From positions 32,001 through 96,000 of the IMG/VR virus record IMGVR_UViG_3300025848_000001: DNA of 64,000 nt, one strand, 5' to 3'. The notes under the pieces were generated by a model, which worked only from the letters and a program-made list of their open reading frames with translations, had not been told where the DNA came from and made no database searches. Origin of the DNA: a virus (taxonomy: Duplodnaviria > Caudoviricetes). Shown here in pieces: positions 31,720 to 60,634 of the stretch (the first letter of the stretch is position 1; the number at the start of each line of letters is the position of its first letter). The position numbers and the translations under genes were made by a program.

Positions 31720-31747
31720 TGATTCCCCCTTTTAAATATTAAGATAG

Positions 31748-31822
31748 TAGGCCTAATCGGATTTGAACCGATACTCGATTGTATATAAGACAATTGCTTT
31801 CACCAGATTAAGCTATAGGCCC
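31748..31822 (-). tRNA. tRNA-Ile, anticodon UAU
   Basis: GGGCCTA/TAGGCCT acceptor; GCTT/AAGC D-stem; ATTGT-CTTATAT-ACAAT anticodon arm; ATCGG-TTCAAAT-CCGAT T-arm; no encoded CCA. Confidence 0.92.
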
Positions 31823-34283: not shown

Positions 34284-34427
34284 ATGGATAGATACTTACT
34301 AATAGAACTAGGCTCAGATGGAATTGCCTTTGAAACCGCTCAATTTGATTTCTACGCTTCATGGCTAGGAATTGGAATTGCTATCGTGTCAGTGGTAGCG
34401 TATAAGATTTATAAGAACAGAAAGTAA
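34284..34427 (+). CDS. Early small membrane protein (47 aa)
   Basis: MDRYLLIE...WLGIGIAIVSVVAYKIYKNRK; AAAGGAA RBS. Confidence 0.65.
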   Translation: MDRYLLIELGSDGIAFETAQFDFYASWLGIGIAIVSVVAYKIYKNRK

Positions 34428-34440
34428 AGGAATAAAAATA

Positions 34441-34617
34441 ATGTACGCAATGTCATGGGAAAGAAATACTAGAGACTATAAGTATGAAAGTATCCAGCAT
34501 GGATATGAGGTACTAGACTATCAAGATGAAGAACCACTAGAAATATCACTAGAGGAAATGCTAGAATTAGAAAATGAAGAAATGGAAATGGAAGAATTGG
34601 GTGAGATTTATGGCTAA
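34441..34617 (+). CDS. Early highly acidic protein (58 aa)
   Basis: ...DEEPLEISLEEMLELENEEMEMEELGEIYG; AAAGGAA RBS. Confidence 0.65.
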   Translation: MYAMSWERNTRDYKYESIQHGYEVLDYQDEEPLEISLEEMLELENEEMEMEELGEIYG

Positions 34618-34708
34618 GGATAAATGCTCTATGTGCTATGGTAGAGGTGTGATGTATGTAGGCGATAGGTATGAATATACAATAGAGCCTTGTGAGTGTA
34701 AAGCATGA
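34610..34708 (+). CDS. Early Zn-ribbon micro-protein (32 aa)
   Basis: CSMCYGRG...EPCEC; probable paralog of 35619-35774. Confidence 0.55.
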   Translation: MAKDKCSMCYGRGVMYVGDRYEYTIEPCECKA

Positions 34709-34869
34709 ATAGACTACTAACTAGCCTTGTGCAATTAGCCCTTGTTATACCCGCCCTATACATGGGGCGTATAGCGTGGGAAATGCTAAAAGAAGATGTG
34801 AGAGAACTCACAAAATAAATACGGCGTGTCGGCTTGACAAAAAGCTGATCGCCCGCAACGATTGTGGAG

Positions 34870-34899
34870 TTATCCACAGGTTTACGGGAGTTATCCACA
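34870..34899 (+). promoter_or_regulatory. Two perfect DnaA boxes
   Basis: TTATCCACA at 34870 and 34891, 21 bp apart. Confidence 0.7.
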
Positions 34900-35048
34900 A
34901 CCCCTGGATTTTTGCGACACGCCGAAGATTTTGTGATTTTTATCACACGAATTGAGCGTCTCAAAATATGGAATTACTCGCTAGTAAGTAGAAAAATGTC
35001 GGTGGGCTATGATACCCTTACAGGGTAACAAAATGAAAGGAAAACTAA

Positions 35049-35276
35049 ATGATAAAAAAATATTCTACTGAAAACATTCTTGAGGGAACTTATTATCGTT
35101 CCACTAATCGTTATCCTATGGACGGACTTATCAACTACGCTTCTAAGCGTCATTATTGGGTAGGCGAGGACGCTACTGCCTATGTCGTAAGGGTTCGCCC
35201 TATCTATGACCCATCTAACCCTAAAACATGGGGTAAAGATTTTTGGGCTACTATTGCCGTAAGCCATGCCGACTAA
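35049..35276 (+). CDS. Early small protein
   Basis: GAAAGGAA RBS after promoter 34997. Confidence 0.75.
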   Translation: MIKKYSTENILEGTYYRSTNRYPMDGLINYASKRHYWVGEDATAYVVRVRPIYDPSNPKTWGKDFWATIAVSHAD

Positions 35277-35323
35277 ATGTCGGTGGCTTCCGCTATAATC
35301 TAAATACTACGAAAGGAAAACTA

Positions 35324-35476
35324 ATGAAAATAAGTGTAAATGAAAATTATTACTCAACAGACGAAAGTTTTTTTTGCTGTGATGAACAGGTAATAAAAAT
35401 GTATTGCGAACCTCATGGCGAGTTTATGGGTTGTTATTTTTGCGAATTTGATTATACAGAAAAATGCGAATGCTAG
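35324..35476 (+). CDS. Early Cys-rich small protein
   Basis: ACGAAAGGAA RBS; CC..C.PH...C.FC...CEC. Confidence 0.7.
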   Translation: MKISVNENYYSTDESFFCCDEQVIKMYCEPHGEFMGCYFCEFDYTEKCEC

Positions 35477-35618
35477 GAGATAAAAAAATGGATTTGATCG
35501 ATTTTAGAAATTATGTAAAAGCTGAGCGTGAAGCAACACGCCAGCAAAACCTCACCGCAATTTTGTCGGTGGCTTCTGCTACAATTACAGAAAACAACGA
35601 ACGAAAGGAAAACTAAAA

Positions 35619-35774
35619 ATGAAAGTAATTCACACTCTATCTTTTGACTGCGATACCTGCTATGGAAAAGGTTGGTTATTTTATGGCGGAGGCGAGGACT
35701 ATAATGTTGAGCCTTGCGACTGTAACCCTAACTCTGATTTTGACGGCTCTTTATTTGTAAAGGAAAATGACTAA
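35619..35774 (+). CDS. Early Zn-ribbon small protein
   Basis: CDTCYGKG...EPCDC; AACGAAAGGAA RBS. Confidence 0.65.
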   Translation: MKVIHTLSFDCDTCYGKGWLFYGGGEDYNVEPCDCNPNSDFDGSLFVKEND

Positions 35775-35919
35775 TGAAAAAAAATGTTCTAATCTCTTTT
35801 GTTACTGAGGCTGATACTGATTTGGAAGCGGTATTTGACCTAAACAAAATTTTTCTAGCCTTGCCTGAAAGCGAACTAAAAAAGTTTGATGTATTTGATG
35901 TTTTGGAGGTTGTTGAATA

Positions 35920-36108
35920 ATGATGACACGAAAAGACTATGTTGCTACCGCAGAAATTCTGCGGTATGTATCAGACAAAACTCACCCTGCTGTATTTTCA
36001 AAAATGGTTGTAGATTTTGCTGAGATGTTCGCAAGAGATAATGAAAGATTTGATGCGAATAAATTTTATTCCGCAGCGAATTACAAAATACCAAGTTTTA
36101 GGAGTTGA
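35920..36108 (+). CDS. Early small protein
   Basis: MTRKDY...DNERFD..KF motif, common in phage early regions. Confidence 0.7.
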   Translation: MMTRKDYVATAEILRYVSDKTHPAVFSKMVVDFAEMFARDNERFDANKFYSAANYKIPSFRS

Positions 36109-36109
36109 A

Positions 36110-36256
36110 ATGAAATTACAAAATAAAGAAAGAATAAAAAAAGTTTTGGAAATTCGCCGCAGTAATGCGGCGACACCAATTCCATCTAAAAAAACTTATT
36201 CACGAAAACGAAAACATAAAAAAACCGCTGTTGGTAAAACTATGAATTGGGATTAG
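36110..36256 (+). CDS. Basic small protein
   Basis: RRSNAA.P..SKK.YSRKRKHK; AGGAG RBS. Confidence 0.65.
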   Translation: MKLQNKERIKKVLEIRRSNAATPIPSKKTYSRKRKHKKTAVGKTMNWD

Positions 36257-36440
36257 TTGAATTTTCAACTAATCGCCCGCAAGAACTGTGGGGGCGCCAA
36301 GCTTGTTACGTCAAGTCCAAAACACCCTTAAAATTTGTGATGTTTATCACAAAAATAATTTTTAGACACGCCGATAATAAAACTAATTTGTCAGTAGATT
36401 ACGCTATAATTCTCGCATAACAACAAACGAAAGGTAAAAA

Positions 36441-36692
36441 ATGAAAGACATGACTAGATGGGCATTATTCCCATTCACCGTTGACGGAGTAGAATTCGTA
36501 TCTAAGTTAGATATCGAAGGCTCAATGTATAATCAAGTAAAAAATCTGCCTGCTGGATTATTTACTGCTATGAACGAGGGTGCTATCCGTGAAATAATCG
36601 GTTCAGTATCTACTATGTCTAAATCTGAAATTCAGGCAGAATTAGACCGTGTAAATGAGGGTTATTCGCAGGCTTATTTAGCCCTAGCCTAA
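36441..36692 (+). CDS. Early hypothetical protein
   Basis: CAAACGAAAGG RBS. Confidence 0.75.
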   Translation: MKDMTRWALFPFTVDGVEFVSKLDIEGSMYNQVKNLPAGLFTAMNEGAIREIIGSVSTMSKSEIQAELDRVNEGYSQAYLALA

Positions 36693-36748
36693 TAATGTCG
36701 GTGGGCTAGTGTATAATCTAGCCCACTAACAACAAACGAAAGGGAATT

Positions 36749-37021
36749 ATGTTATCAACTGCTTCTGCTCTACTTGAGGCTACTCAAGAGGGAATAATTG
36801 GCGATGAACAAATGGAACTTGCTTCTTTTATTGTAAATGCTCGCCATGAACTAGACCAAGAACAATTTGCTAAAGCGATGTTTATGTATGCTACTGCTAT
36901 TGCTTCATGCGTAACTGATAAAGTTACTAAAGTATTACTAACTGAAAGTCAATTTAGAGAACTAATTGAAACTATTGACGAAATGGAAACAATGTCTAAT
37001 GAGGTGCTAAATGGGAAGTAA
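36749..37021 (+). CDS. Early hypothetical protein
   Basis: CAAACGAAAGGG RBS. Confidence 0.75.
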   Translation: MLSTASALLEATQEGIIGDEQMELASFIVNARHELDQEQFAKAMFMYATAIASCVTDKVTKVLLTESQFRELIETIDEMETMSNEVLNGK

Positions 37022-37283
37022 TCTTGCTTATGATTTAGCAAATGGCGAAATGGATTTATCTAGTGCTATTGCTATACACTTATCAGCTAATCATTATCCA
37101 CCCGTCCCCAAATTTATGGTGGAGCCGTGTATCGAGGCTATTTTTGCCTATGATGAAGGCGAAATAGATCGTGAAATAGCCATGCCCGAAGGAGTATCCT
37201 ATAAAGGTAGAGATACTGCTCCTGCGTGGGCTATTGTAGAACAGCACCACTTAGATGCGTGGATAACTAACTACGAGGAATAA
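37011..37283 (+). CDS. Early hypothetical protein
   Basis: HL.ANHYPPVP...HHLDAW motif. Confidence 0.75.
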   Translation: MGSNLAYDLANGEMDLSSAIAIHLSANHYPPVPKFMVEPCIEAIFAYDEGEIDREIAMPEGVSYKGRDTAPAWAIVEQHHLDAWITNYEE

Positions 37284-37335
37284 TTGTCGGTGGGGTGGTG
37301 TATAATCACCCTGTCAAACTAACGAAAGGGAAAAA

Positions 37336-37482
37336 ATGCTAGAAATCGGACAAACCTACACAACTACCCAAAGCGGTATTGTTGGAATTATCAAGGCGAT
37401 TGACAATCACCCAAGTGGAGTAAATCGTATTCTCCTTGATGTAAATGGCGCAGAACGCTGGACAAGCGCACCTGCTAAATAA
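37336..37482 (+). CDS. Early small protein (48 aa)
   Basis: MLEIGQTYTTTQSGIVG...; AACGAAAGGG RBS. Confidence 0.65.
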   Translation: MLEIGQTYTTTQSGIVGIIKAIDNHPSGVNRILLDVNGAERWTSAPAK

Positions 37483-37565
37483 CAACTAAATAGGCAGGGC
37501 TCACCAAAATGTCGGTGGGCTCTGCTACAATTTTGCTCAACAAATAACGAAAGGAAAATAAACAA

Positions 37566-37991
37566 ATGGCAAGAAACGGAAAATCTATTAGTGTCAAGAT
37601 TGCTACAACTAAAGTAATCAAAGCACTAGAAACTAAGTTAGCAGAATTAGAGGCTAACTACAAAAAGCAAGATGAAAACGAAGCAAAATACCAAAAGTCT
37701 ATGGAAAAATGGCGTAAAGAAGTTGGTAAGTTTGCTATTGCTAACATCTCAAAGGCAGAAAACTTCCGCACAAATTATCGCTCATGGAACAAAACTCTCA
37801 ATGTAGATTTTGACCTGACCTGTAATGAAGCAGATTTCCCTGCTGAACCTGTGCGTGATTTTGAGGTAATTCATCAGCACACATACAACGAGATGAAAGA
37901 GGAAATCTCTAACGCTATCCGTATTCTCAAGATGACAGATGAGGAAGTTGTAAGCACCTCAACTTACAACGCTATCGCTCGTTATCTCTAA
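37566..37991 (+). CDS. Early hypothetical protein
   Basis: 141 aa; AACGAAAGGAA RBS; followed by a hairpin. Confidence 0.8.
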   Translation: MARNGKSISVKIATTKVIKALETKLAELEANYKKQDENEAKYQKSMEKWRKEVGKFAIANISKAENFRTNYRSWNKTLNVDFDLTCNEADFPAEPVRDFEVIHQHTYNEMKEEISNAIRILKMTDEEVVSTSTYNAIARYL

Positions 37992-38064
37992 TAGCGTGGG
38001 GGCTAGACAAACTCTAGCCCCCTATGCTACAATTCGTATCCCTACTAACAAAGGAAATAAATAA

Positions 38065-38298
38065 ATGCGATTGGCTGAAATATTCGAAGTAGAATACTCA
38101 GTAAGTCCTGGCGGTGTAGATTGCTGGGAAATGGAAGTAAGAACAGGTGTGGGACAACATCACAACTATTCTGAATACAAATCTGCTGGTGAGGCGTTGA
38201 ATCACCTGCTATCGCTCTATCCTGATGAGCAATTAAACATAACAATAACAAATCTAATAACTTACAATAAACTTATTGAAGAAGGTGTTTATGCGTAA
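38065..38298 (+). CDS. Early hypothetical protein
   Basis: AAAGGAA RBS. Confidence 0.7.
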   Translation: MRLAEIFEVEYSVSPGGVDCWEMEVRTGVGQHHNYSEYKSAGEALNHLLSLYPDEQLNITITNLITYNKLIEEGVYA

Positions 38299-38548
38299 TA
38301 GATTTAGAATTGAGATCTATGATGAAAATAAGTTAAATGATTTAACTCTTTATTCTGAGCAAGGCGTAGATAAAGAATACTTAACTGAATTAGTATTTTC
38401 TAATTTATCTCAGTTTTCTGGTAGAGTAAAAGCATATGTCTATGATGAATTAAAAAAGAAAAAGACAGTTGCTTTGTTAATACCTGAAGAAACTGTAATT
38501 AATCTTAAACCAAAACAATTGACTAGAATTGAGTTAGGTTTAATTTAA
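38291..38548 (+). CDS. Early hypothetical protein
   Basis: Coupled ORF; GAAGG RBS. Confidence 0.7.
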   Translation: MRNRFRIEIYDENKLNDLTLYSEQGVDKEYLTELVFSNLSQFSGRVKAYVYDELKKKKTVALLIPEETVINLKPKQLTRIELGLI

Positions 38549-38782
38549 AATAATTGGGGCGGGTTTGAACTGTGTAATCATCTAGATTCCCGCCCCATTC
38601 CAATTTTTGCCCGCAAGAACTGTGGGGGCGCCGAGCTCTTTACGTCAAGTCAAAAACACCCCTTAAATTGTGAGATTAATCACAATGTCCGATTTGCCCT
38701 ATCTTACATCTAATCTGTTGCCAAATGTCGGTGGCGTAGTGTATAATTCAGATTCAATCTAACAATGAAAGGAAATAAATTC

Positions 38783-39793
38783 ATGGCTCATAACCTTGAA
38801 ACTAATGGCGACGAAGTCGCTTTCGCCCTACGTGGCACACCTGCTTGGCATAATCTTGCCAATCGTATCTTCAATCAAGATGAAGATGTCTCAACTCAAT
38901 TGATGTTAGACGAAGCAAAACTTTCTAATTGGAATGTTCGCTTGTCTCCAATTACTGATTTTATTCCAGAAAATTGGAATGACACATCAGATTCACAATT
39001 GGTAATTCGTACCAATCCATTCAATAATGGTACCGATGTTCTTTCTACTGTCGGCTCACGATATAAAGTTGTTCAGAATGAAGAATTATTTTCATTCGCT
39101 GACAATATCCTAGATGGCGATTCTCGCTGTGCTTGGGAATCTGCTGGCTCTCTCAAGGGTGGTAAAGTTGTATTCGGCTCTCTTACTGTCCCTCGTGAAA
39201 TGGTATTAGACCCACAAGGTGCTAACGATAAAACAAAATTGTATCTTATCGTTTGGACATCTCACGATGGTTCTGTCGCTGTTCAAGCAGCAATCACACC
39301 TGTTCGTGTTGTATGCCAAAACACTTTGAATCTCGCAATGCGTTCTGCTAAGCAATCTTTCAAGATTCGCCATACTCAGACTGCTGAAGGTAAGATTCAA
39401 ATTGCTCGTGAAACTCTTGGTCTAACTCTTGGATACTTTGACGCATTCGAGAAAGAGGCTCAGGAATTGTTCAAATCAGAAATTACTGATAAGCAATTCT
39501 ATGATTTGATTCGCACAATTTATCCTAAGCCTGCGGAAGATTCTTCCAAATTGGCTCAGACTAAGTGGGAAAATAAAGTTATTCTTCTTGATGACCTTTA
39601 TTTCAATTCACCTACTAATGCTAACATCAAGGGTACAAAATGGGGTGCTTTCAATGCGCTTACTGAACGCCTTGATTATTTCCGTCCGACACGGAAAAAT
39701 AATTCAGAATCTAAGTGGGCTTCCGCTTCAGGTTTTGACCCGATTATTACTGCTGAGAAGAATAAAATTCTTCAAGTTGTAAAATCATTCTAA
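38783..39793 (+). CDS. DUF932 / TIGR03299-type phage-plasmid protein
   Basis: MAH...PAWH.L, YKVVQNEELF, ESAGSLKGG, SHDGS, TPVRVVCQNTL, RHT, GTKWGAFNALTE. Confidence 0.85.
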   Translation: MAHNLETNGDEVAFALRGTPAWHNLANRIFNQDEDVSTQLMLDEAKLSNWNVRLSPITDFIPENWNDTSDSQLVIRTNPFNNGTDVLSTVGSRYKVVQNEELFSFADNILDGDSRCAWESAGSLKGGKVVFGSLTVPREMVLDPQGANDKTKLYLIVWTSHDGSVAVQAAITPVRVVCQNTLNLAMRSAKQSFKIRHTQTAEGKIQIARETLGLTLGYFDAFEKEAQELFKSEITDKQFYDLIRTIYPKPAEDSSKLAQTKWENKVILLDDLYFNSPTNANIKGTKWGAFNALTERLDYFRPTRKNNSESKWASASGFDPIITAEKNKILQVVKSF

Positions 39794-39798
39794 AGAAT

Positions 39799-39818
39799 GG
39801 GGCCCCGCAAGGGGCCCC
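39799..39818 (+). terminator. GC hairpin with GCAA tetraloop
   Basis: GGGGCCCC-GCAA-GGGGCCCC directly after the stop codon. Confidence 0.75.
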
Positions 39819-39974
39819 TCCTCTTCGATCTAATTTGACAAAGCTGCAAAAATGCCCGCAGAAGGTAAAGGCGAAAAATGTGTTTTACGTCACATTTTAA
39901 AAATCCCCTAAAAAGCCTGGACTTTTGTCAGTCAGGTCCGCTATAATACTCCATATAACAACGAAAGGAATAAA

Positions 39975-40439
39975 ATGGAAAAAGTAACACAAGATGCATA
40001 TGCTCCGCACCAATTGATAACTCTTAAGCAGATTACTGGCGAGGATGTTGAATTCGAGTTATATAAAGTAACTGAGTTAGAAACAGTTTTGCATGATGCA
40101 AAGAGTAGAATTAATCAATTAACTGGACGCTTAGAGGCACAGGAAAAGCAAATTGGTTTAATTTTAAATAAGATGACGTCAGATGAATGGTATTCATCCA
40201 GCGTTGAAAAGTTTGAGGTATTGTCAGACCTATGTGATATTCTTGGGTTTGAACCAAAGCAAAGCATTCGTATTACTGCTACCGTTGAGGTTGAAGTTGA
40301 CTACGATTGTCCACTTGATGAAATTGAAGACTTTGATGCAGGAGATTTCTTACAAGATGTTTTAACAATTGATACATATCATGGTGATGCTATGGTTTAT
40401 TCATACAACGTAGAATCAGCAGATTGGGCTACGCACTAA
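39975..40439 (+). CDS. Early acidic protein
   Basis: AACGAAAGGAAT RBS. Confidence 0.75.
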   Translation: MEKVTQDAYAPHQLITLKQITGEDVEFELYKVTELETVLHDAKSRINQLTGRLEAQEKQIGLILNKMTSDEWYSSSVEKFEVLSDLCDILGFEPKQSIRITATVEVEVDYDCPLDEIEDFDAGDFLQDVLTIDTYHGDAMVYSYNVESADWATH

Positions 40440-40651
40440 TGTATTATCAACTACAGGCACCCACTAGCGCAGCCTGCAAGGCTGCCTATTGGGAGGCAGA
40501 GTTTTCAGGACTTGACCCATATTGGCTTGAGTCTAATGTATTTGAATTAGGAACAGGAAGCATTGAAAAAGTTTCTGCCTTGATTTCCAAATATAATCTT
40601 GATATACTAGTTGAATCAGATTATCAACCAACTGGTTATACAAGGAGGTAG
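40439..40651 (+). CDS. Early hypothetical protein
   Basis: TAATG-coupled start. Confidence 0.65.
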   Translation: MYYQLQAPTSAACKAAYWEAEFSGLDPYWLESNVFELGTGSIEKVSALISKYNLDILVESDYQPTGYTRR

Positions 40652-40652
40652 T

Positions 40653-40817
40653 ATGGACTACAAAGACGGTTTTGAAGACGGAGTTAAGTTTACTCGTGAA
40701 GTAATCATTGCTAATATTCGTAAATGGGCTGAGGATTCTATTCTTGGCGAAGAAGGAGCAATTATGGACAGCGTTGCAGATAAAATCGAATTTGGGACAT
40801 TAGACAATGACCTCTGA
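40653..40817 (+). CDS. Early hypothetical protein
   Basis: AGGAGG RBS. Confidence 0.65.
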   Translation: MDYKDGFEDGVKFTREVIIANIRKWAEDSILGEEGAIMDSVADKIEFGTLDNDL

Positions 40818-41028
40818 GGATCTTACAATAGAATGGATTAAATGCGATTCTTGTTCCGCCCGTGCAGCTTGGCTTGCACGTGGTACTAATGGTGAGCTTA
40901 CATTTTGTGGACACCATTTAAATAAGAATAAGTCGGGCCTTGACAGTTGGGCCTATGAAATTATAGAATTGGGTAAAGAAGAACTACCTAAGAAACGAAC
41001 TAGACGAAAGGCGGTAAAAAATGGGTGA
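40807..41028 (+). CDS. Zn-finger protein
   Basis: CDSC...L.FCGHH motif found in actinobacterial and actinophage proteins. Confidence 0.7.
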   Translation: MTSEDLTIEWIKCDSCSARAAWLARGTNGELTFCGHHLNKNKSGLDSWAYEIIELGKEELPKKRTRRKAVKNG

Positions 41029-41425
41029 CAGAGCAAATTTTGTTTTTGTACAACCAAGCGGAGAGACCATTGTCCTATATGGACATTGGGCAGGACATAA
41101 CATGTTGGAGCATTTAGGCGAGGCTGTAGCCAAGGCACAGTCACGTTGGTCGGACCCTTCATATGCAACACGTATAGCAATTAGTCAAATGATTGGCGAC
41201 GGTTGGGGCATGGAAACTGGATGGGGACTGCAAGTAAATGAGATATCAGACAATGAACACAAGATTCCTGTGATTAATTGGCTGGAACAGACTATGTCTC
41301 TTCATGAGGAAGATTCACATTTCAACGAATCTAATAAGGTCCGTGGAATGAAGAATGAAGCGATATTCACAATTGATTTGCGAACGTTTGTAGAGAAATA
41401 CACGGACGCAAAACTTTTGGTATAA
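41021..41425 (+). CDS. Early hypothetical protein
   Basis: MGDRANF...LYGHWAG...RWSDPSYATRI. Confidence 0.8.
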   Translation: MGDRANFVFVQPSGETIVLYGHWAGHNMLEHLGEAVAKAQSRWSDPSYATRIAISQMIGDGWGMETGWGLQVNEISDNEHKIPVINWLEQTMSLHEEDSHFNESNKVRGMKNEAIFTIDLRTFVEKYTDAKLLV

Positions 41426-41556
41426 TATTAATAATGAGGTGCCGCTACTAGCGATTCCGCAAGTGGTTAACTAAAGCAGCATTTACTTAAATTCCTTTCG
41501 TTTGGCTAGCAGCCTCATATTAATAGGGCCCCTGGGATCCAGGGGCCTTTCCTTTT
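41426..41556 (+). ncRNA. Candidate small RNA antisense to the early-gene ribosome-binding leader
   Basis: Extended -10 TGGTATAAT at 41418; closing stem; ATTCCTTTCGTTTG at 41491-41504; terminator 41527-41556; no usable ORF. Confidence 0.6.
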
Positions 41557-41705
41557 GCCCGCAGTAACTGAGGGTAGCTAAAGCTTGTTACGTTGTCAAG
41601 TCAAAATCCCCTAAATTTTGATCAGCTGCGATGTGTCCCACATCATATAGACAAATGTCAGTGGGGGGATGTATAATAATGCTCCATAACGAGAAAGGAA
41701 TATAT

Positions 41706-42452
41706 ATGCCAAACTGGGTATATAACGGTCTAACTATTGAAGGTAATCCTTCAGAAATTAATGACCTTGTAGCACAATTAAATAAACCATTCAAAATGGT
41801 CCATGATTCATGGAACATGGAAAATGGACAAATGCAGAAGAAATTAACAACATATCCAAATCCTGTATTTGCATTCTATAACATCTATAACTATATTGAA
41901 GACGGTGTTACTGATTATGAATATCTTGCACAACCCGACCATTCTTTACCAATTGAAGAATCAATGAAATTTGCAACAAATGATTGGTATAACTGGAATG
42001 TTCGTAATTGGGGAACAAAATGGGATGTTGCTGTATCTTCAGATGATAAATATCCTGATACATATACTGAGGGACCTACTTCTAATGGTGAGAATCTAGT
42101 TGTATATTATAACTTTAATACTGCTTGGTCTCCTCCGTTTCCTGCCATTGCTAAATTATCAGGCCAATACCCAACTCTTCTATTTACACTTAGTTATGAA
42201 GAAGAAACAGGTTGGGGTGGCGAATGTGAATTCCTTCGCAATGAAATGATATCTAATTCAGAGTATTCTAATAAATGTAGAGACTGTGATTCAGAAGATA
42301 CATTAGATTATTGTGAGAATGATTGTGGAGAAATTTGCTCTGCTTGTAATTATTTAGGAGAGGCAGACCTTGAATGTGTCAAAGAATGTCAGACCCATAA
42401 GATATACTTGGATGAAAATCACGTACCTGAATACAGAATGGAGCAAATATAG
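41706..42452 (+). CDS. DUF1281/YubB ferredoxin-like protein
   Basis: MPNWVYN, DWYNWNVRNWGTKWD, FNTAWSPP, YEEETGWGG. Confidence 0.8.
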   Translation: MPNWVYNGLTIEGNPSEINDLVAQLNKPFKMVHDSWNMENGQMQKKLTTYPNPVFAFYNIYNYIEDGVTDYEYLAQPDHSLPIEESMKFATNDWYNWNVRNWGTKWDVAVSSDDKYPDTYTEGPTSNGENLVVYYNFNTAWSPPFPAIAKLSGQYPTLLFTLSYEEETGWGGECEFLRNEMISNSEYSNKCRDCDSEDTLDYCENDCGEICSACNYLGEADLECVKECQTHKIYLDENHVPEYRMEQI

Positions 42453-42670
42453 TGGAAGCGTTTACAGATACTCTAGGAGAACATATCCTAGGAGCAATTC
42501 AAGTAGATATTGAAGAACATCTATTTGAACAATGGAATCAATCTAATTTAGATGAAGGCACGGAATATGCTGAATTTAGATTTATTCAATTTGCACCTGA
42601 TAGTGTAAAACAATCATACAATGAATTCTATGGATATAAAGAAGGAGATGAATACTATGTTGGGATATAG
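42452..42670 (+). CDS. Early acidic protein
   Basis: GTG start with GGAG RBS. Confidence 0.65.
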   Translation: MEAFTDTLGEHILGAIQVDIEEHLFEQWNQSNLDEGTEYAEFRFIQFAPDSVKQSYNEFYGYKEGDEYYVGI

Positions 42671-42811
42671 TACAAAGGATGTATTTGATATGCAGAATGC
42701 TATTGAATTGGCTCTTCCTTATATTCCCGCCAATTCTTCAAATGATTTAGTTCGTGAAGGATTGTTATCTGCGTTTGATTTGTTAGAAGGACTAATTGTG
42801 GAAGGAAGAAT

Positions 42812-43009
42812 GTGAATCAGTTAATTGAATATATAAAGCTTCATGTAATTAGTTTGGAACAAGACCAGGAAGATGTTTCTAATGAAATGGAAAAACTGGA
42901 TATGAACTCTAAAGATTATATTGAATTAGACTTTGAATATAATCATCTAGGAGGACAGATTCTTTCTGCCCGCCATATTTTGTCAGTGGCGGAGGATATA
43001 CTAGGATGA
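42812..43009 (+). CDS. Early acidic protein
   Basis: Coupled ORF; its 3' end contains promoter 42981. Confidence 0.6.
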   Translation: MNQLIEYIKLHVISLEQDQEDVSNEMEKLDMNSKDYIELDFEYNHLGGQILSARHILSVAEDILG

Positions 43010-43287
43010 TGTACTCAATGGAACTGGAACCACGCCTGCAGAAGCAGGTTGACATGAACATCTCTGGAACAGATATTTTGCACGGGGAACTCAAAAACCT
43101 TATCTATGAGGCTGAAGCAGAACTGGCTCGTGCACAGGAAATAGAAGAAGAGAACGACTATGGCGACGCCATGGAATCTATGGAAAGAAAGTATTGGGAG
43201 GGCCAAGTGGACGGTCTCTCACATGTGTATGCATTAACATATCAACTTGCATTCGCAATTAACGAAAGGACAAAAGCACGTGGCTGA
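43006..43287 (+). CDS. Early acidic protein
   Basis: YGDAMESMERKYWEG motif. Confidence 0.7.
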   Translation: MMYSMELEPRLQKQVDMNISGTDILHGELKNLIYEAEAELARAQEIEEENDYGDAMESMERKYWEGQVDGLSHVYALTYQLAFAINERTKARG

Positions 43288-43609
43288 TATAGATCTAAAT
43301 AAACTATATAACGATATGGTTGATATTAATGATAGGATTACCAAACTTCCTGTATTCCCGTCCCTTGGCTGGGTATGGACCTTTGACATCCTTAGAGATA
43401 TCTTTGACAACGCCGATACTGGCTATGACGAAGCAATCACTGAAGGCGTCACATTACAACAAATCTTTAATAAGTTCTATGAAGACATCGACAAGTTGGA
43501 CATGAATATGGACCAAGGTGGGGAGATGTTACAGGAGACAATCAGAGACTGGATGAGAGACAACGACTTCCTCGTTGCCCTGGATGATGACGGGTGGCTA
43601 GATGACTAG
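43280..43609 (+). CDS. Early highly acidic protein
   Basis: GTG start after AACGAAAGGA; Asp-rich. Confidence 0.7.
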   Translation: MADIDLNKLYNDMVDINDRITKLPVFPSLGWVWTFDILRDIFDNADTGYDEAITEGVTLQQIFNKFYEDIDKLDMNMDQGGEMLQETIRDWMRDNDFLVALDDDGWLDD

Positions 43610-44554: not shown

Positions 44555-44954
44555 GTTGTGCAAAATTATGGGCCAAATATCGTTTTTACGACAATTGATC
44601 AAAATCGTGGAAATTTTGTAGCAAATAGATCTAAATCTGTCAAGAATATAACAGAATTGTTATAAATATGACAAAATTGATCAAAATCATGTGGGCAAAT
44701 TTGATCATTTACGGGCAAATTTTAAAAATCGTGGAAATTTTATCCAAAATCTATTGACAAAATTTGATCAATATGCCATTATATTACGATACGATTTAAG
44801 ATTAATTGCGTTCCATTACACTAATATCTTTTTGTTATAAATATAATAGTAATTGCTAGATAATTAATAGTATGATTCTCCACTTTACTCCACAATTCTC
44901 CACTTTAAAAGCCTTTAAAAGGCTATTAGAAAGGAGATAAATTGGAGGGGGATA

Positions 44955-45626
44955 TCAGAGATAGGCCTTAAATTCTTGTGGCATTTGGGCAAAATCTTCA
45001 GATGTGCAAAGTCTCTTTGGATTATTTGAATCTTCGCCAATACATCCACAAGATCCATCTTTATCGCTATATAGGCTATCTCCTCTAATATTTTTATTAA
45101 AATATTCTCCAAATGAGTCTGCGTTTCTTATTTCTCTTAATTCAGATACAGATATAGGATATTGTGCTGGGTTTCCATTTTTGAATATTGTAGTTAACAT
45201 AAATGTACCTAGTGCTATATTGAACCACCATAATACTTTACCTAGGCTACTATCTATTTCACCCTTAGCCTTTGGTATCCCGCCATTTTCCATCAAATAT
45301 ACCTTTTCTTCCTCATTAAAGGACAGATAGGCTTCAACCATATCATCATCTACATCAGTAATGTCTACACCATAAAGTTCAGCTGTAGCTTCAACCTCAT
45401 CCCAGTCTTCTGGATTAGGATAGTTCTTATAAAATTCTTCAGAATCTCTCAAGCTAGTTTTATAGTCATCCATTATTTTAGCAATCAATTCTTGATCGTC
45501 TCTGTCTGGATAAGATGTGACTATATATCTAGCGTCATATCTGGATATACCGTATTTTCTAACTAATTCGTTTATTCTGTCTTCTGTTAGATCTTTTACT
45601 AGATCAGCCACCATAAACTTCTTCAT
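44955..45626 (-). CDS. Hypothetical protein with one TM segment
   Basis: 223 aa; acidic N-half; VLWWFNIALGTFMLTTIF. Confidence 0.65.
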   Translation of the reverse strand: MKKFMVADLVKDLTEDRINELVRKYGISRYDARYIVTSYPDRDDQELIAKIMDDYKTSLRDSEEFYKNYPNPEDWDEVEATAELYGVDITDVDDDMVEAYLSFNEEEKVYLMENGGIPKAKGEIDSSLGKVLWWFNIALGTFMLTTIFKNGNPAQYPISVSELREIRNADSFGEYFNKNIRGDSLYSDKDGSCGCIGEDSNNPKRLCTSEDFAQMPQEFKAYL

Positions 45627-45633
45627 AGTCCTA

Positions 45634-45921
45634 TTATACCTTTTCCTTGCCTAGAATCTGCTTTATAAGCTCTATTGGCGTTATTGGATCTTCATCTGGT
45701 AGTGAACCATATTTATGTAGTAATTTAAGCAATATTCCAGCTAGAAATATATCATCTGAATATGCCATCCATGGGAATAATATATCAAATAGGTCTATTG
45801 GTACTAATATGTATCCTACACAAGCCGCCGCCACAATTTTGACCCATATTGGAGATCTATCAAATTGATCTTTATAGGGTCTAATTATTTGGCGAATTGG
45901 GGTTCTATTTTTGCGTTTCAC
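45634..45921 (-). CDS. YkvA/DUF1232-like membrane protein
   Basis: P.WVK......GYILVPIDL.D......SDD motif. Confidence 0.75.
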   Translation of the reverse strand: MKRKNRTPIRQIIRPYKDQFDRSPIWVKIVAAACVGYILVPIDLFDILFPWMAYSDDIFLAGILLKLLHKYGSLPDEDPITPIELIKQILGKEKV

Positions 45922-46075
45922 TTAATCCCATAAATTATATGCGTATTCTGGCGAATTTAAGGATATCATCCTAGATTTGCCACATGGGCATGGTGGAGCT
46001 TTATGTATTTGATCTTCTGGCAATTCAGTCTCTATTGATAATAATGTCTTACATTCCTTACATTTAAACATATAT

Positions 46076-46672
46076 TTAGTCATTATTATCCTCCAATAAA
46101 ACTAAATTTTCTTTAATTAATGAAACTGATATATCGTCAGCTATTATAGATATGTCCTTCACATATAGGGATATTGATTCTTCTCTATGGGATTCTAGAT
46201 TTTTCGTACTATTCCCGCCTATAAAAATCATACATGGACTAATTTTATCATCAAATTCATAGGAAGTTATCAAATTGTTATCAATATAAAAAGATACTGA
46301 TTTTTCATTTAATAATAAATCTAGGTTATGCCAATCTTTATCTTCTATTGGACACCCCTCCCATATTTTTAATTCAAACCCATTATTTCTAATGTAAGTT
46401 ATTAAATTTTCATTTTGGTAGACTAAAGATGCAAATGAATGATATTCTGCACTGTGTTTAAAATCAACATCAATTATTGCAGCATTGTTTATAGGATTAT
46501 CTGAATATTTAAATTTCATGTTAAATTTAAGTGTTTTATCAAAATTTATCAAATCATATGAGCCCAAACATCCAAATTTTTTAAAACCAGATAAGCCTAT
46601 CTCATCAGATAATATTTTTAAATTATTTATGTTTGCCCATTCTAACATTTTGTTATTTTCCTTTAAATCCAC
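46076..46672 (-). CDS. Hypothetical protein, possible ConA-like fold
   Basis: DKDWHNL...VSFYIDN...IFIGG. Confidence 0.5.
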   Translation of the reverse strand: MDLKENNKMLEWANINNLKILSDEIGLSGFKKFGCLGSYDLINFDKTLKFNMKFKYSDNPINNAAIIDVDFKHSAEYHSFASLVYQNENLITYIRNNGFELKIWEGCPIEDKDWHNLDLLLNEKSVSFYIDNNLITSYEFDDKISPCMIFIGGNSTKNLESHREESISLYVKDISIIADDISVSLIKENLVLLEDNND

Positions 46673-47117
46673 CTATATTTGGATCCATTAAGCCTGGCTC
46701 TAATCCATTGGGATATTTACTATAGAATACTCCTTCGGCTTCCCGCCCCGCCTGTTCTACAACAAATCCATTTTCACGATCAAATAAAACATAATCTAGC
46801 TCTTGAACATCAAAGTATTGCTTGAATATTCTTAGTGCCTTATGTAGGTCAAGTGTTCCGCATGTATAGAGATCAAATTGAATTAAGCCTGGATCTATCT
46901 CATCCCAAATATGAAATGCAATATGGCTAGTTTCAATCATAACTACTGCGGTTAGACCTTTATTGCCTTCTGCATCAACATATGATGCAAATGGTCCTTT
47001 AATAATTTTCATATCAATCTGGTTAACTAAGAATTTTAGAAATTCAATACCCTGTTCTTCGGTATTCATTGGGTTCTTTACTTTAGCGTTAACGAGTAAA
47101 TGCTTATGATATATCAT
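46653..47117 (-). CDS. speD: S-adenosylmethionine decarboxylase proenzyme
   Basis: HKHLL, GLTAVVMIETSHIAFHIWDE, DLYTCG. Confidence 0.85.
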   Translation of the reverse strand: MIYHKHLLVNAKVKNPMNTEEQGIEFLKFLVNQIDMKIIKGPFASYVDAEGNKGLTAVVMIETSHIAFHIWDEIDPGLIQFDLYTCGTLDLHKALRIFKQYFDVQELDYVLFDRENGFVVEQAGREAEGVFYSKYPNGLEPGLMDPNIGGFKGK

Positions 47118-47375
47118 TATGCTCCTCACATACAAATATTATTCGATACCCGTCCGAATTTATACCAACGGATGCCTTCTTACAAAAATTGCATACAGAT
47201 GCTATTTTAACATTTCTATCCCTCAAATGCTGCAGATATGCAGCCTGAAATGGATCTTTCGGAAGAGGGTAATTGCTCACTATCCAATTTTACAATTTAT
47301 GACAGGTACTGTCAATATACCCTTCTACTTTTCCGCTTCACTTTTTGAGCTCCAAAATAGTATAATATGTGTATT

Positions 47376-47948
47376 ATGAGTAATAAATTATTAGATTTAA
47401 TTTCAGAAGCAAAAGATAGCAATAAAACCTATGCAGTTTTTAAAAATTGGAGAACCCCGCCAGATACAAAAATAATATCAGAATTACATGCAAATAATAA
47501 AGAAAGATATGCAAGAACTTCTATAATAAGTAAATACAATGAAAAAGAAATTGATTCTTTTTTAAATGAATGCTTATCTGTATACGATATACCAGAATAT
47601 GCTTTTTACATTATAAAAGGAATGTCTGGCCATGGACATAGTACACACAAAGATCCATACGATATAATTCACTGGCAGTGTAGTGGTTCTACTGAATGGA
47701 AAATTGGCAAAAAAGAAATAGGTAAATTATGGGAAGCTGGGCAAGCAAAAAATGAAAAAGATGGTTTTACAAAATGGAAAGTTAGTTGGCTAGAAGAACC
47801 AGATACTTTTATATTAGAGCCAGGTGACATAATGTGGTTTAGAGGAGACGCTGGCACTGATAGTGGCGCTTGGCATAGCACTCTTAATTTAGATGATAAA
47901 TATTCAATAGTTTTCGATGCTGGCAAAGAAGAATTTCCAGAATATTAA
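47376..47948 (+). CDS. JmjC/cupin-type oxygenase
   Basis: HKDPYDIIHWQCSG..EW, LEPGDIMWF, WH. Confidence 0.7.
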   Translation: MSNKLLDLISEAKDSNKTYAVFKNWRTPPDTKIISELHANNKERYARTSIISKYNEKEIDSFLNECLSVYDIPEYAFYIIKGMSGHGHSTHKDPYDIIHWQCSGSTEWKIGKKEIGKLWEAGQAKNEKDGFTKWKVSWLEEPDTFILEPGDIMWFRGDAGTDSGAWHSTLNLDDKYSIVFDAGKEEFPEY

Positions 47949-47952
47949 TCAT

Positions 47953-48549
47953 TTACACATAAGCAATATCTGTACATATTCTAGATCCGCTAGTTACTTC
48001 AGTTACAAGATGGATTGTATTTGAATCAAAAACTATTGCTTCTCCAGATAGTGGTTTTATTTTAATGTCATTTTTATTAACTTCAAATGTTTGATTTAAA
48101 AAATCAACACCAACACCACTTTCATTTTTAAAAATTACCTCTCCGCCTTCATAATCGCTAGTGAAATATAAAAGTATTGTTATATTTGGAACCTTTTTGC
48201 CATCTTTTGAATCCCAAGAATCACTGTGAAACCCAATGCTAGACCCTATGTTCCAGGTTTTAATCCAGTATACTTCTTCTCCGTCAAGACGATAATCGTT
48301 TAAATTTTTATTAAAATGATTTGTATATATTTTTAAAATATTTTTTGTGATCGGATTTAAAATTTCAAAAATATTTTTTTCTGGATAATTTAAATCTTTA
48401 GTTACTTCTACGTAATCACCACATCTAAAATGCTTGATTTCAAATTTTTCAGATTTTGACAGCAAAAGAACTTTTTCGATATCTTCTTTAGAAATACAAT
48501 TATTTAAATAAAGACCTTTATCATATATAATGCTATTTAATTCAAACAT
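47953..48549 (-). CDS. 2OG-Fe(II) oxygenase
   Basis: HSD...DYEGGE...HLV.EV.SGSR. Confidence 0.85.
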   Translation of the reverse strand: MFELNSIIYDKGLYLNNCISKEDIEKVLLLSKSEKFEIKHFRCGDYVEVTKDLNYPEKNIFEILNPITKNILKIYTNHFNKNLNDYRLDGEEVYWIKTWNIGSSIGFHSDSWDSKDGKKVPNITILLYFTSDYEGGEVIFKNESGVGVDFLNQTFEVNKNDIKIKPLSGEAIVFDSNTIHLVTEVTSGSRICTDIAYV

Positions 48550-48727
48550 ATATATATTATAGCAAATTATTTATTATTCTTAATAATATCAACAGCAAGC
48601 AATTTAAATCCAAGTGCGTTTATTTGATGTGGAGCATTTAAATCTATTTCATCTAATAACTTTAAAATGCGTTCTTGTTCTTGCTTTACTGCCTTCTTAC
48701 AGCCTTGACATGGACATAACCAGGCCA

Positions 48728-48943
48728 TTACTTGATTCTTTTTACTTTAGCCCAAAGACGCTCATGAATATAATATCCTAAAGCTTCCCACGCAATGTAT
48801 CCTAAAGCACCCAGAGTAGCATATTCATACTCTACATCGCCAGTTATAGCATAAGTAACAATAGCAATAATTCCTGCTACTCCAATTAAATGAAATGTTT
48901 CCCAGCTTAATGTTTTTAATAATGTTCTTTTATTTGATTCCAT
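48728..48943 (-). CDS. DUF2061-like membrane protein
   Basis: ESNKRTLLKTLSW...YYIHERLW. Confidence 0.75.
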   Translation of the reverse strand: MESNKRTLLKTLSWETFHLIGVAGIIAIVTYAITGDVEYEYATLGALGYIAWEALGYYIHERLWAKVKRIK

Positions 48944-49274
48944 TTTTAATTAGCCTAAAGGCATCTCCTGTTTCGTAATCTTCATAATCCCAATCGAGAT
49001 TATATTTTTCCCAGTAAGGTACACCTTCTTCGTCATAATCATTCCAGCCATCCCCGCTCATATCAAAACTAAACTCATAAAATGTACCAAATTTATAATA
49101 TACAGGCCAAGTAATTTTCCAAATAAATGAATGCATCTTGTACTGCCACCCAAAATTTTCTAGTTCGTCTTCGTAGGATATCTTCATAATTGCCCATCCT
49201 GCAATTGAACCACACATATTTGCAAACCAAAGTAAGGGAAGAACTTTAGTTTTATTTACTTTTAAATTACTCAT
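48930..49274 (-). CDS. Hypothetical protein
   Basis: 114 aa ORF. Confidence 0.6.
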   Translation of the reverse strand: MSNLKVNKTKVLPLLWFANMCGSIAGWAIMKISYEDELENFGWQYKMHSFIWKITWPVYYKFGTFYEFSFDMSGDGWNDYDEEGVPYWEKYNLDWDYEDYETGDAFRLIKNGIK

Positions 49275-49437
49275 GGTCTATCTCTTCTTCCCAGTCCATC
49301 TCCCAAGACTCCAAAGACTTAGCAAGATCGTCAAATGCTCTGTATGCGGTAAATGCTGCTGCAAATGCCGCCAATGCTATTATACTAATTTTTTTCATAT
49401 ACATATATTATACTTTATTTATATAACCTAGTCAATA

Positions 49438-50214
49438 TCAATCAAAATATTTTTTAGTCCAAAATTTTTCTTTATAATTTGTTGTATGTTCTATACTATC
49501 TTTATTTTCATACATTAATTTCATTTGTTTTCTATGCTCTAAGGATTGTTCTTCATCATAATAAATATTTTCATGCTCCCACTCTTCATTTTTAAACGGT
49601 ATTATTTGCATATATGGGGTGCCAGCTTTTATAACGCCTTCAAAATCTTCCTGAATAAAAAATGGAGCAAGTCCACCATTTATATAGCTACTGCAATCAA
49701 CAATTCCAGAAACAGTTAAAAATGGTAAATCAAATCTATTAAGTGGGTGTGTAAATAACGCTATGTAGCCCTCTGGTAATTGTGGAAACCAATTTGTTGA
49801 CCAAGTAAAGTGAACTGGGCTATATCCCTCTGGTGTTGGAAACCCATGTCCTTCACCCCTAATATTACAAAATGCAAAATTTTTAAGATTTACGTTGTTT
49901 GAAAACTTTTCATCTATTTTGATAGAATATGAATCTTTATTTTTTTTTATCTCTATATCGCATGGGGTAAATAGTAAATACCCTGAAGATATAGAATCAA
50001 AAACTGCTGGACAAGATTTAAAAGTTTTTTGTCTATCAAATTTTGTAGATCCATCTTTTGTTTTATAAAAATTTAAAGCTATGTTACCAAATTTATCTCT
50101 TATATATTTATCTGCAGACATAAACCAATTAGGGATAAACTTTTTTGCTGGAGCTGGATTAAATTCTTTGGCAGAATTATTTTGAAAAGTTTTAGAATGA
50201 AAAATTATTTTCAT
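49438..50214 (-). CDS. DUF6065-like protein
   Basis: P.PAKKFIPNW, TFKSCPAVFD..SGY, THPLNR, GIVD, IKAGTP.MQIIPF. Confidence 0.6.
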   Translation of the reverse strand: MKIIFHSKTFQNNSAKEFNPAPAKKFIPNWFMSADKYIRDKFGNIALNFYKTKDGSTKFDRQKTFKSCPAVFDSISSGYLLFTPCDIEIKKNKDSYSIKIDEKFSNNVNLKNFAFCNIRGEGHGFPTPEGYSPVHFTWSTNWFPQLPEGYIALFTHPLNRFDLPFLTVSGIVDCSSYINGGLAPFFIQEDFEGVIKAGTPYMQIIPFKNEEWEHENIYYDEEQSLEHRKQMKLMYENKDSIEHTTNYKEKFWTKKYFD

Positions 50215-50876
50215 TTAATTAACCCAACTATTCCAATATTTAATAAAGATTTTTTTATAGGAAATTGTGGAACTTCTGGGGAAAGCCAATCATGAAGACA
50301 CGTCACTATCGCATATTTTGTGCCAGATGTTACTGGGTGAGCTTTATGAGTATAAGCAAAATTAGAAGGAAAAAAAATCATGCTATTTGCTTCTGGTTTT
50401 AATTTCAAATTAAAATTTGTAAATTCTATTTCTCCTCCATCATAATCATCATTTAAATATATTACAACAGAAACAGATCTTGCTGTTTCTGTTGATCCAT
50501 CAAAATGAGGTTTATATTCTTCATTATTACTATATTTTAAAACTGTATAAGGCTCATGATAAAGTTCAAATGGAATGTTATATCTATTTTTATACCAAGC
50601 AATTGCTTCCTCCACTTTGGTAAAAATTAAATTATGAATTTTTTTTGCATTTTCGTTTCCAAATTTTGCATTTTTAGTTATAGCCATAGTGTAATTAGTT
50701 CTTACATTTTGGTCTGATCCATATCCAATTGTACCCGCTTTTTCCCAACTCCATGACTCTTGTTTTAAATTTAATTTATTTTCTTTTTCAAGAATATTTA
50801 TAATTTCATGTGAATCAGAAAAAACATCTTTAAATACTACTATGCAGCTACCTAGATCTTTATCGGGGTTTATCAT
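50211..50876 (-). CDS. 2OG-Fe(II) oxygenase
   Basis: HFD...YLNDDYDGGE...FPS..H.AHPV.SGTKY. Confidence 0.88.
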   Translation of the reverse strand: MINPDKDLGSCIVVFKDVFSDSHEIINILEKENKLNLKQESWSWEKAGTIGYGSDQNVRTNYTMAITKNAKFGNENAKKIHNLIFTKVEEAIAWYKNRYNIPFELYHEPYTVLKYSNNEEYKPHFDGSTETARSVSVVIYLNDDYDGGEIEFTNFNLKLKPEANSMIFFPSNFAYTHKAHPVTSGTKYAIVTCLHDWLSPEVPQFPIKKSLLNIGIVGLIK

Positions 50877-50877
50877 T

Positions 50878-51339
50878 TTAATTTAAAAGTGAGGGAACCC
50901 ATTCATCAATTTGCTCTGGCGTAACATTTGGAGACATTGATCTAAACTGATTTTTATCAACTAAAAACTTTGTAAAGTTCCACGGAACTGCATCAAAATC
51001 AGCTTTAGAAACTAAATATTTAAATAAAGGATGAGCATTTTCTCCATTTACATCAATTTTTTCTGAAATAATAAAATCTACGCCATACCTAGTCTCGCAA
51101 AAATTTTTAATTTCTTCGTTAGATCCTGGCTCCTGATTACCAAATTGATTACAAGGAAATCCTATCACTACTAGACCCTTGTCTGCATATTTTTTATGAA
51201 GTTCCTGTAGCCCCTTATACTGTTCAGTAAAACCGCAGTTACTGGCTACATTAACAATTAAAAGTAAATTGTCTTTAAATTTTGATAATTCTATTAAATT
51301 ACCTTTATTATCCGTAAAGCTATAATCATATATTGACAT
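50878..51339 (-). CDS. Glutathione peroxidase family (Cys type)
   Basis: NVASNCGFT, GFPCNQFG.QEPG, WNFTKFLVD. Confidence 0.92.
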   Translation of the reverse strand: MSIYDYSFTDNKGNLIELSKFKDNLLLIVNVASNCGFTEQYKGLQELHKKYADKGLVVIGFPCNQFGNQEPGSNEEIKNFCETRYGVDFIISEKIDVNGENAHPLFKYLVSKADFDAVPWNFTKFLVDKNQFRSMSPNVTPEQIDEWVPSLLN

Positions 51340-51415
51340 TTTGATTCCTTATTATAAAAACAAATATAAAAAATATTTGCCTGTGCTATATAATACTATA
51401 TTATATAGCCAATTG

Positions 51416-55290: not shown

Positions 55291-55520
55291 AAACTTCTCT
55301 ACCTTTAATTTTTTTCCATTGTCCTATTTTGCCAATAAAAACTTTTTTTCTTAAAATTTCTGCAAAAGTTTGATGCGGTTCTGAAGCTCCAATATACTCT
55401 TGCCCAGTTTCCATATCTATTATCTTCCATTTAGAAGGGGCTTTAGTATGTATGATTAGGTCTATTGGGTGATCAAAATCTTCTACCTCTGAACCATCAA
55501 GGAGTTTTCTAAATTTAATT

Positions 55521-57350: not shown

Positions 57351-57357
57351 TAGCTTA

Positions 57358-57984: not shown

Positions 57985-57987
57985 AAT

Positions 57988-58462: not shown

Positions 58463-58471
58463 ATAATTAGA

Positions 58472-60613: not shown

Positions 60614-60634
60614 ATCCGTATATTCTACTAAATA

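Follow-up and report, generated by a model that had tools for sequence, protein, structure and literature searches.

The window analysed here is a 64,000-nt stretch (positions 32,001 to 96,000) of the 119,837-bp virus record IMGVR_UViG_3300025848_000001, which has direct terminal repeats. Between the gene at window positions 41021-41425 and the gene at 41706-42452 lies a stretch (41418-41556, plus strand) that bears the marks of a small RNA gene. We found no open reading frame (ORF) of at least 25 aa inside it. An extended −10 element (TGgTATAAT, 41418-41426, plus strand; TG at 41418-41419, TATAAT at 41421-41426) overlaps the stop codon of gene 41021-41425. At the other end lies an intrinsic terminator (41525-41556, plus strand), in which a stem-loop at 41525-41549 with an 11-bp G+C-rich stem and a 3-nt loop is followed by a T-run. 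From the promoter, the RNA was predicted to start at ~41432-41434, and promoter and terminator together delimit a predicted transcript of ~120 nt that holds no conserved ORF (41433-41556, plus strand). An earlier interpretation of this DNA, which we call the sequence-only reading, had described an ORF-less unit with an extended −10 and its own terminator, and all three were present.

We examined the RNA in two samples of related loci. The first was fetched through the upstream protein (32 loci; first-set sequences, n = 26), and the second was fetched with a protein profile of the neighbouring protein, blind to the RNA (80 loci; 56 distinct RNAs). At 32/32 loci of the first sample and 80/80 of the second, the RNA lay downstream in the corresponding slot, with its strand unchanged. 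Pattern scans and a covariance model found further members, 59 in viral contigs and 105 in metagenome DNA contigs, each 1 kb or longer. The family totals 310 loci, from viral records and lake metagenomes, with 148 distinct core sequences, and in the wider set the identity of the flanking proteins drops to ~50% upstream and ~40% downstream. This genome has a single copy of the RNA, as do five complete relatives (110-116 kb). Judged by these sequences, the RNA family is abundant, strongly conserved and ready for description as a candidate new RNA family.

Transcription signals were tallied in the 93 distinct members with enough flanking sequence. We observed a −10-like hexamer upstream of the RNA in 79 of them, in the form TGnTATAAT in 54, and a terminator-like hairpin with a T-run downstream in 81. 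Three members (L009, L015 and L020) lack the TG and have a full TTGACA-17-TATAAT promoter instead. The surrounding block of plus-strand genes, referred to here as the island, has a promoter motif of its own, TGTCRGTGG ahead of a −10. This motif stood before the RNA in 0/60 contexts; in 51/56 contexts it headed the next downstream module, 100-300 nt further on. These data suggest that the RNA is a stand-alone plus-strand gene with a predicted promoter and terminator of its own. Its promoter is predicted to be of the ordinary sigma-70/sigmaA type, a class distinct from the surrounding island promoters. Because the island motif was never found at the RNA promoter, the putative regulator and its proposed targets appear to be under different transcriptional control.

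Covariation across relatives indicated that the core of the RNA (~95 nt) is a three-way junction of the helices P1, P2 and P3, given here in plus-strand coordinates. P1 (41434-41440 with 41512-41518) has an invariant GG and an invariant U.G pair, with compensatory change in 4 of 7 pairs. The P2 hairpin (41441-41467) has five basal pairs (41441-41445 with 41463-41467), a distal stem (GCG/CGC) and the loop AUUC; it was 99% paired, with compensatory change in 3 pairs and a distal part of variable length. The junction J2/3, UAACUAAA (41468-41475), is nearly invariant in the family (consensus UAA-N-UAA-N), and TAA.TA was found in 56/56 distinct members. In the P3 hairpin (41476-41510), GCAGC (41476-41480) pairs with GCU(A)GC (41505-41510) with A41508 bulged, and the loop is open (41481-41504). 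P3 was 99.6% paired, with compensatory change in 3 pairs. The single-base junction J3/1, A41511, directly precedes the 3′ strand of P1 and lies inside an invariant GCAGCC.

Across the 56 distinct RNAs of the second sample, standard pairs filled 97.4% of cells compared to 78.1% in column shuffles, a level reached by 0/500 shuffles. Changes on both sides were observed in 10/17 pairs, and other samples gave a like picture. As a control, we slid the partners by 1-3 columns, which left pairing at only 23-49%. The nearly invariant core residues (GGUGC, UAA-N-UAA-N-GC and GCAGCC) were as invariant as the loop. The sequence-only reading had drawn a single closing stem and had named covariation in relatives as a check. 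Covariation was found and upheld the outer part of that stem, which is P1; the inner TGC...TAGC / GCTAGCA did not hold as part of the same stem. Its segments belong to P2 and P3, and the fold is therefore a three-way junction and not one long stem.

Thermodynamics alone did not choose the strand, since both strands folded better than shuffles in single-sequence folding (z = −3.1 for the plus strand, z = −4.4 for the minus strand). The helices contain 123 G.U cells, which become A.C mismatches on the minus strand; 95% of cells were paired when read as plus strand and 79% when read as minus strand. G.U cells fit the plus strand only, and plus is therefore the RNA strand. Among the findings that would speak against it, the sequence-only reading had listed minus-strand transcription of a minigene encoding M-L-L, which would stand behind the ribosome-binding-site-like AACGAAAGGA. 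The minus strand of this window does read CAAACGAAAGGAATTTAAGTAAATGCTGCTTTAG, a ribosome-binding site (RBS) followed by ATG, two codons and a stop. However, that ATG was present in only 4/26 first-set sequences, and both the promoter and the terminator are oriented for plus-strand transcription. The minigene was rejected as a conserved feature, and we consider a minus-strand reading of the unit extremely improbable.

The P3 loop region, CATTTACTTAAATTCCTTTCGTTTG (41480-41504), contains the 8-mer CUUUCGUU (41495-41502, plus strand), the proposed seed, which is the complement of the leader AACGAAAG. CUUUCGUU was invariant in 56/56 distinct RNAs, a sample picked by the neighbouring protein and not by the RNA. 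We performed a census of 8-mers in 110 distinct related loci, with the RNA masked and 3 kb taken on each side. AACGAAAG was the third commonest 8-mer on the RNA strand, with 267 copies compared to 0 on the opposite strand, and only the promoter words TGTCAGTG and GTCAGTGG outranked it. By this ranking, the commonest island word that is not a promoter word is exactly complementary to the invariant loop 8-mer. The proposed complementarity of the loop to the leader of the putatively early island genes was exact, both in this phage and across the family.

The genome has two classes of translation start. Genes of the plus-strand island have A/C-rich leaders ending in GAAAGG(A), and the minus-strand structural and replication genes (window 1-33500 and 44900-64000) have AAGGAG-type Shine-Dalgarno (SD) sequences. 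Minus-strand genes mostly use AAGGAG; genome-wide we counted 15 AAGGAG-type starts, and 4 GAAAGG-type starts were on the minus strand. At 507 distinct GAAAGG-type starts on the RNA strand of the related loci, the three preceding bases were A (85%), A (78%) and C (77%). Pairing with the usual actinobacterial 16S tail, CCUCCUUUCU-3′, would favour A at −1. Because C at −1 is disfavoured by this tail, the AAC extension of the leader is unexplained by ribosome pairing, yet it is matched by the RNA.

Within the window, the leader word ACGAAAGG occurred 10 times compared to 0.87 expected, a count reached by 0/100 shuffles. The tenth copy is the RNA's own complement (41494-41501, minus strand). The other nine are plus-strand copies between 35309 and 43269, and all nine lie at gene starts within the plus-strand island (35.3-43.3 kb). 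The best predicted target was the leader of gene 36749-37021 (36736-36743), with a predicted duplex of −19.0 kcal/mol. A gene start preceded by the leader at 35601-35608 (−18.8 kcal/mol) came next, then the leaders of gene 37566-37991 (37547-37554; −17.4 kcal/mol), gene 39975-40439 (39961-39968; −16.0 kcal/mol) and gene 36441-36692 (36427-36434; −15.2 kcal/mol). Gene 41021-41425, directly upstream of the RNA, has its leader at 41004-41011 (−14.8 kcal/mol), and gene 43280-43609 at 43262-43269 (−14.4 kcal/mol). The leader at 35309-35316, also before a gene start, gave −13.7 kcal/mol, and the copy before a gene start at 37322-37329 is likewise a proposed target. Eight of these positions had been listed in the sequence-only reading and were correct, as was its 12-nt perfect match to the loop complement (39960-39971); the copy at 41004 is an addition.

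Duplex prediction, another check that had been put forward with the original claim, favoured the island. In this genome, the mean predicted duplex was −11.7 kcal/mol at island starts (n = 26) compared to −7.1 kcal/mol at the other 131 starts (P = 6e-8, Mann-Whitney). The ten best predicted sites of the genome were all island genes, and the observed island mean was reached by 0/200 shuffled loops. The best predicted duplexes ranged from −14 to −19 kcal/mol and covered the SD. The loops of the family fall into four subgroups (A to D), of which this window's RNA belongs to A, and complete relatives of subgroups B and D behaved similarly (−11.9 vs −8.0, P = 2e-6; −9.9 vs −6.8, P = 1e-5). In each of these two relatives the island held 8/10 best sites, and its mean was reached by 0/100 shuffles. 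By this model, predicted pairing singles out the island start sites in three genomes of three loop subgroups.

These data suggest, with a probability that we put at roughly 0.55, that the RNA acts in trans as an antisense RNA, covering the leader that the island mRNAs share and lowering their translation. P3 would offer an unpaired loop with the invariant CUUUCGUU, and the loop would pair in trans with the AACGAAAG(G) leader. In each phage, some 10-25 genes of the putatively early plus-strand island are predicted to have this leader overlapping their SD. Pairing would block 30S binding and would perhaps expose the very short 5′ untranslated regions (UTRs) to decay. A stable RNA could accumulate and so impose a delayed brake on the whole island, a role that its promoter class, unlike that of the targets, would allow. 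The conserved junction would probably serve stability or a protein partner.

We assessed how the loop is presented by folding 38 P3 variants. Subgroups B, C and D have a short distal stem capped by an apical loop of 6-8 nt, (U)UUCGUU(G), which is the arrangement of classical antisense RNAs. In subgroup A, that of this window, the loop is ~24 nt and open. Scans for the loop variants CTTTCHTT and CTTTDGTT gave chance matches only among the matches listed, and the family signature was found in 0/228.

Several observations weigh against the antisense interpretation. The mean unpaired probability of the loop 8-mer was only 0.65 in single-sequence folding. Co-variation between the flank of the loop and the flank of the leader across subgroups was hinted at by a single position, the base 3′ of the leader 8-mer. 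This base was G in 98-100% where the loop has C opposite and A in 26-31% where the loop has U or A, and both figures are confounded by relatedness. The junction is conserved beyond the needs of a simple antisense RNA, which hints at a further partner. That the effect is repression, and when it would set in, we infer purely. Finally, the related lake phage DSL-LC01 (Actinomycetia phage, OQ999401.1) encodes a homologue of the upstream gene and carries the similar leader ACGACGAAAGGACAA 22 times, and a copy of the RNA was not detectable anywhere in its 129-kb genome. The leader therefore serves a purpose besides pairing with the RNA, presumably to make initiation efficient, and the RNA is an add-on in one clade. 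DSL-LC01 thereby offers a natural leader-without-RNA comparison. In its region 20000-46000 (L172), the 22 gene starts with the leader, there written CAACGACGAAAGGACAA, are all on one strand.

The conservation of the junction lends itself to another explanation, in which the structured RNA acts mainly through a protein or the ribosome. The three-way junction would then be a handle for a nuclease, a chaperone or a ribosomal component, the loop would be the partner's binding site or a guide that brings the partner to leader-bearing mRNAs, and steric antisense would not be the main activity. The residues GGUGC, UAA-N-UAA and GCAGCC match the loop in invariance, and a bare antisense RNA could do without them. 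To our knowledge Actinobacteria have no Hfq, and this makes another partner plausible. Members of subgroup A also have the 9-mer GGUGCGGCU in common with what we take to be the 3′ strand of 16S helix 45. This 9-mer is not conserved, since P2 covaries freely. The neighbouring 134-aa protein had no informative family, solved-structure or atlas match, and Rfam gave no rRNA or protein-binding family match. Overall we regard this explanation as unlikely. In one version of it, which we hold to be rather unlikely, the RNA would serve as the guide within a ribonucleoprotein. Its junction would bind a protein of the phage or the host, for instance a nuclease or a factor associated with the ribosome, and its loop would lead that protein to every mRNA with the AACGAAAG leader. 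If this is true, phage translation or mRNA decay would be switched for a whole class of mRNAs by a dedicated RNA guide. A likeness of the loop to the 16S anti-SD had also been claimed, and on it rested the idea that host mRNAs are affected. We observed this likeness in the subgroup of this phage, where UCCUUUC and GGUGCGGCU are shared with the 16S 3′ end. UCCUUUC was found in loop subgroups A and C only, and two of the four subgroups lack it. Given this and the covariation of P2, mimicry of the 16S 3′ domain was rejected as a conserved feature; the conserved property is CUUUCGUU and not a general anti-SD mimicry.

The same complementarity would be expected if the RNA paired with the leaders to their benefit, shielding the 5′ UTRs from 5′-end-dependent decay or a host nuclease, or buffering ribosome overload. 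The leaders lie a few to ~12 nt from the predicted transcript starts, so that pairing would cover the 5′ end. However, the duplex would cover the SD itself, which in the known cases of c4 and sar blocks initiation (PMC12197685). The leaders are also A/C-rich and unstructured, which leaves no inhibitory structure to relieve, and we consider an activating or stabilising role quite unlikely. We consider it very unlikely that the element acts in cis, as a 3′-UTR stabiliser or terminator of the upstream operon or as a riboswitch-like sensor of downstream read-through. The RNA does directly follow gene 41021-41425, its terminator also ends that operon, and a compact junction followed by a terminator is superficially like an OFF riboswitch. 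However, most members keep a promoter for the RNA itself, as a full −35/−10 pair in L009, L015 and L020, and in 51/56 contexts the downstream module has a separate promoter after the terminator. Inspection by eye of the stretch from P1 to the terminator showed no alternative antiterminator fold. No Rfam riboswitch gave a significant match (c-di-GMP-I, E = 8.5, 15 bits compared to a threshold of 35), and the riboswitch or cis-leader assignment was rejected. A cis role would also leave unexplained an invariant loop that mirrors the commonest leader.

We compared the RNA with known systems. The phage RNA c4 is cut from the transcript of the operon that also contains its target. In phages P1 and P7, loop sequences of c4 pair around a ribosome-binding site elsewhere on the phage RNA and block translation; the single target is ant, in the immunity circuit of a temperate phage (PMC12197685). 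Like c4, the RNA described here is a phage-encoded small structured RNA, and its loop 8-mer complements a leader that overlaps the SD, a likeness of mechanism and not of descent. It differs from c4 in having its own promoter and terminator, a three-way junction and an invariant seed against a leader common to many separate operons, and in being encoded by large, terminally repeated actinophage genomes. Rfam scans at permissive settings, run on the window region and on four members of other subgroups, gave no match to the c4 family covariance model, and their matches overall were at chance level.

The sar and OOP RNAs are encoded in cis, and each is fully complementary to one overlapping target. 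Both sar of P22 and OOP of lambda are small phage antisense RNAs that lower phage gene expression (PMC12197685). The RNA of this window differs in being encoded in trans, with a short seed and many predicted targets. Among host-encoded RNAs of Gram-positive bacteria, Actinobacteria included, 6C, RsaE/RoxS and RNAIII are Hfq-independent and direct loop pyrimidine seeds (CCCC or UCCC) against the purine-rich RBSs of several mRNAs. The likeness lies in the presentation of a pyrimidine seed in a loop. The difference is that the RNA here is phage-encoded, with a U-rich loop whose CUUUCGUU reaches 5′ of the SD into the leader AAC. We found no Rfam match to the 6C/RsaE type and no C-rich loop motif in the RNA. 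Functional analogues are found in T4, in which the endoribonuclease RegB and the translational repressor RegA recognise a motif in the initiation regions of many early mRNAs (GGAG for RegB) and bring about class-wide early shutdown (PMC3014915). Both are proteins, unlike the recogniser proposed here, an RNA that would act by base pairing.

The Streptomyces BE-cluster phage StarPlatinum has a 280-nt transfer-messenger RNA (tmRNA) with the tag ANSNVASAYALAA directly after gp197 (L167:3418-3697; MH576965.1 99548-99827). Because gp197 is the homologue of gene 41021-41425, this tmRNA occupies the same slot on the same strand. It has a tRNA-like domain and a tag, and the RNA of this window has neither. 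ARAGORN found no tmRNA in the window, though it detected that of StarPlatinum. The covariance model of our RNA family did not match the StarPlatinum tmRNA, with which there was no sequence likeness either. Kinship was rejected; the slot is shared and the RNA is not. One intergenic slot thus holds different RNA genes in different actinophage lineages. The RNA lies outside the c4, tmRNA, riboswitch and C-rich-loop small RNA families. Phage antisense RNAs are known as a kind, and what would be new is the combination of an anti-leader seed for many targets with a new fold that is conserved.

Promoters, sigma factors and a small number of proteins, among them RegA and RegB, are the usual explanation for developmental timing in phages, and most known trans-acting phage RNAs belong to the immunity circuits of temperate phages, where each has a single target. 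If the antisense interpretation is true, one small RNA would control the translation of a complete temporal gene class in phages of freshwater Actinobacteria. The RNA could then yield a compact, portable module of translational control for Actinobacteria.

We also assessed the likely host. The portal protein was 57-60% identical to the portals of Streptomyces BE-cluster phages, and homologues of the upstream gene 41021-41425 were found only in actinophages. On these two grounds, the host is probably a low-G+C freshwater actinobacterium. A scan of prokaryote genome contigs found no host homologue of the RNA. Among prokaryote genome assemblies there were only three true matches (L155, L160 and L165), on ~3-kb contigs in unrelated metagenome-assembled genomes (MAGs). 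These three contigs are probably mis-binned phage DNA; the MAGs are labelled Bacteroidia, Polynucleobacter and 'bacterium'. GenBank phage DNA gave no match to the RNA. Searches of Pfam, PHROGs, PDB sequences and an atlas with the neighbouring 134-aa protein gave no informative match.

One further interaction within the RNA was considered. J2/3 (41468-41475) and part of the P3 loop (41482-41489) could form a pseudoknot through UAAGUAAA and UUUACUUA, which are perfectly complementary in most subgroup-A members. We did not find support for it: the two segments showed no covariation, a C.C mismatch interrupts them in this window, and none of the other subgroups has the motif. In many relatives (L019, L024, L028 and others) a stable 5′ hairpin, for example TAGGCC-N4-GGCCTG, lies between the −10 and P1, ~30-45 nt before GGTGC. 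This window has no such hairpin, and its RNA is predicted to begin right at P1.

Several minor features accompany the island. The motif TGTC[AG]GT[GA]G has 11 plus-strand copies in the window (34387-42989), several of them 31-38 nt upstream of ACGAAAGG leaders. It resembles what we take to be the sequence of the mycobacterial RecA-NDp motif read by PafBC. The existence of such a PafBC-read motif in mycobacteria has been described (PMC6789036). The only tRNA that ARAGORN found in the window was a tRNA-Ile with anticodon TAT (31747-31822, minus strand). Directly after the terminator of the RNA, a conserved block (41557-41640) precedes the next promoter. It contains GCCCGCA, a small hairpin (CCCnCA...TGAGGG), TAGCA, TTTACG, GTCAA and TTTCCTGAAA, and was kept in nearly all relatives.

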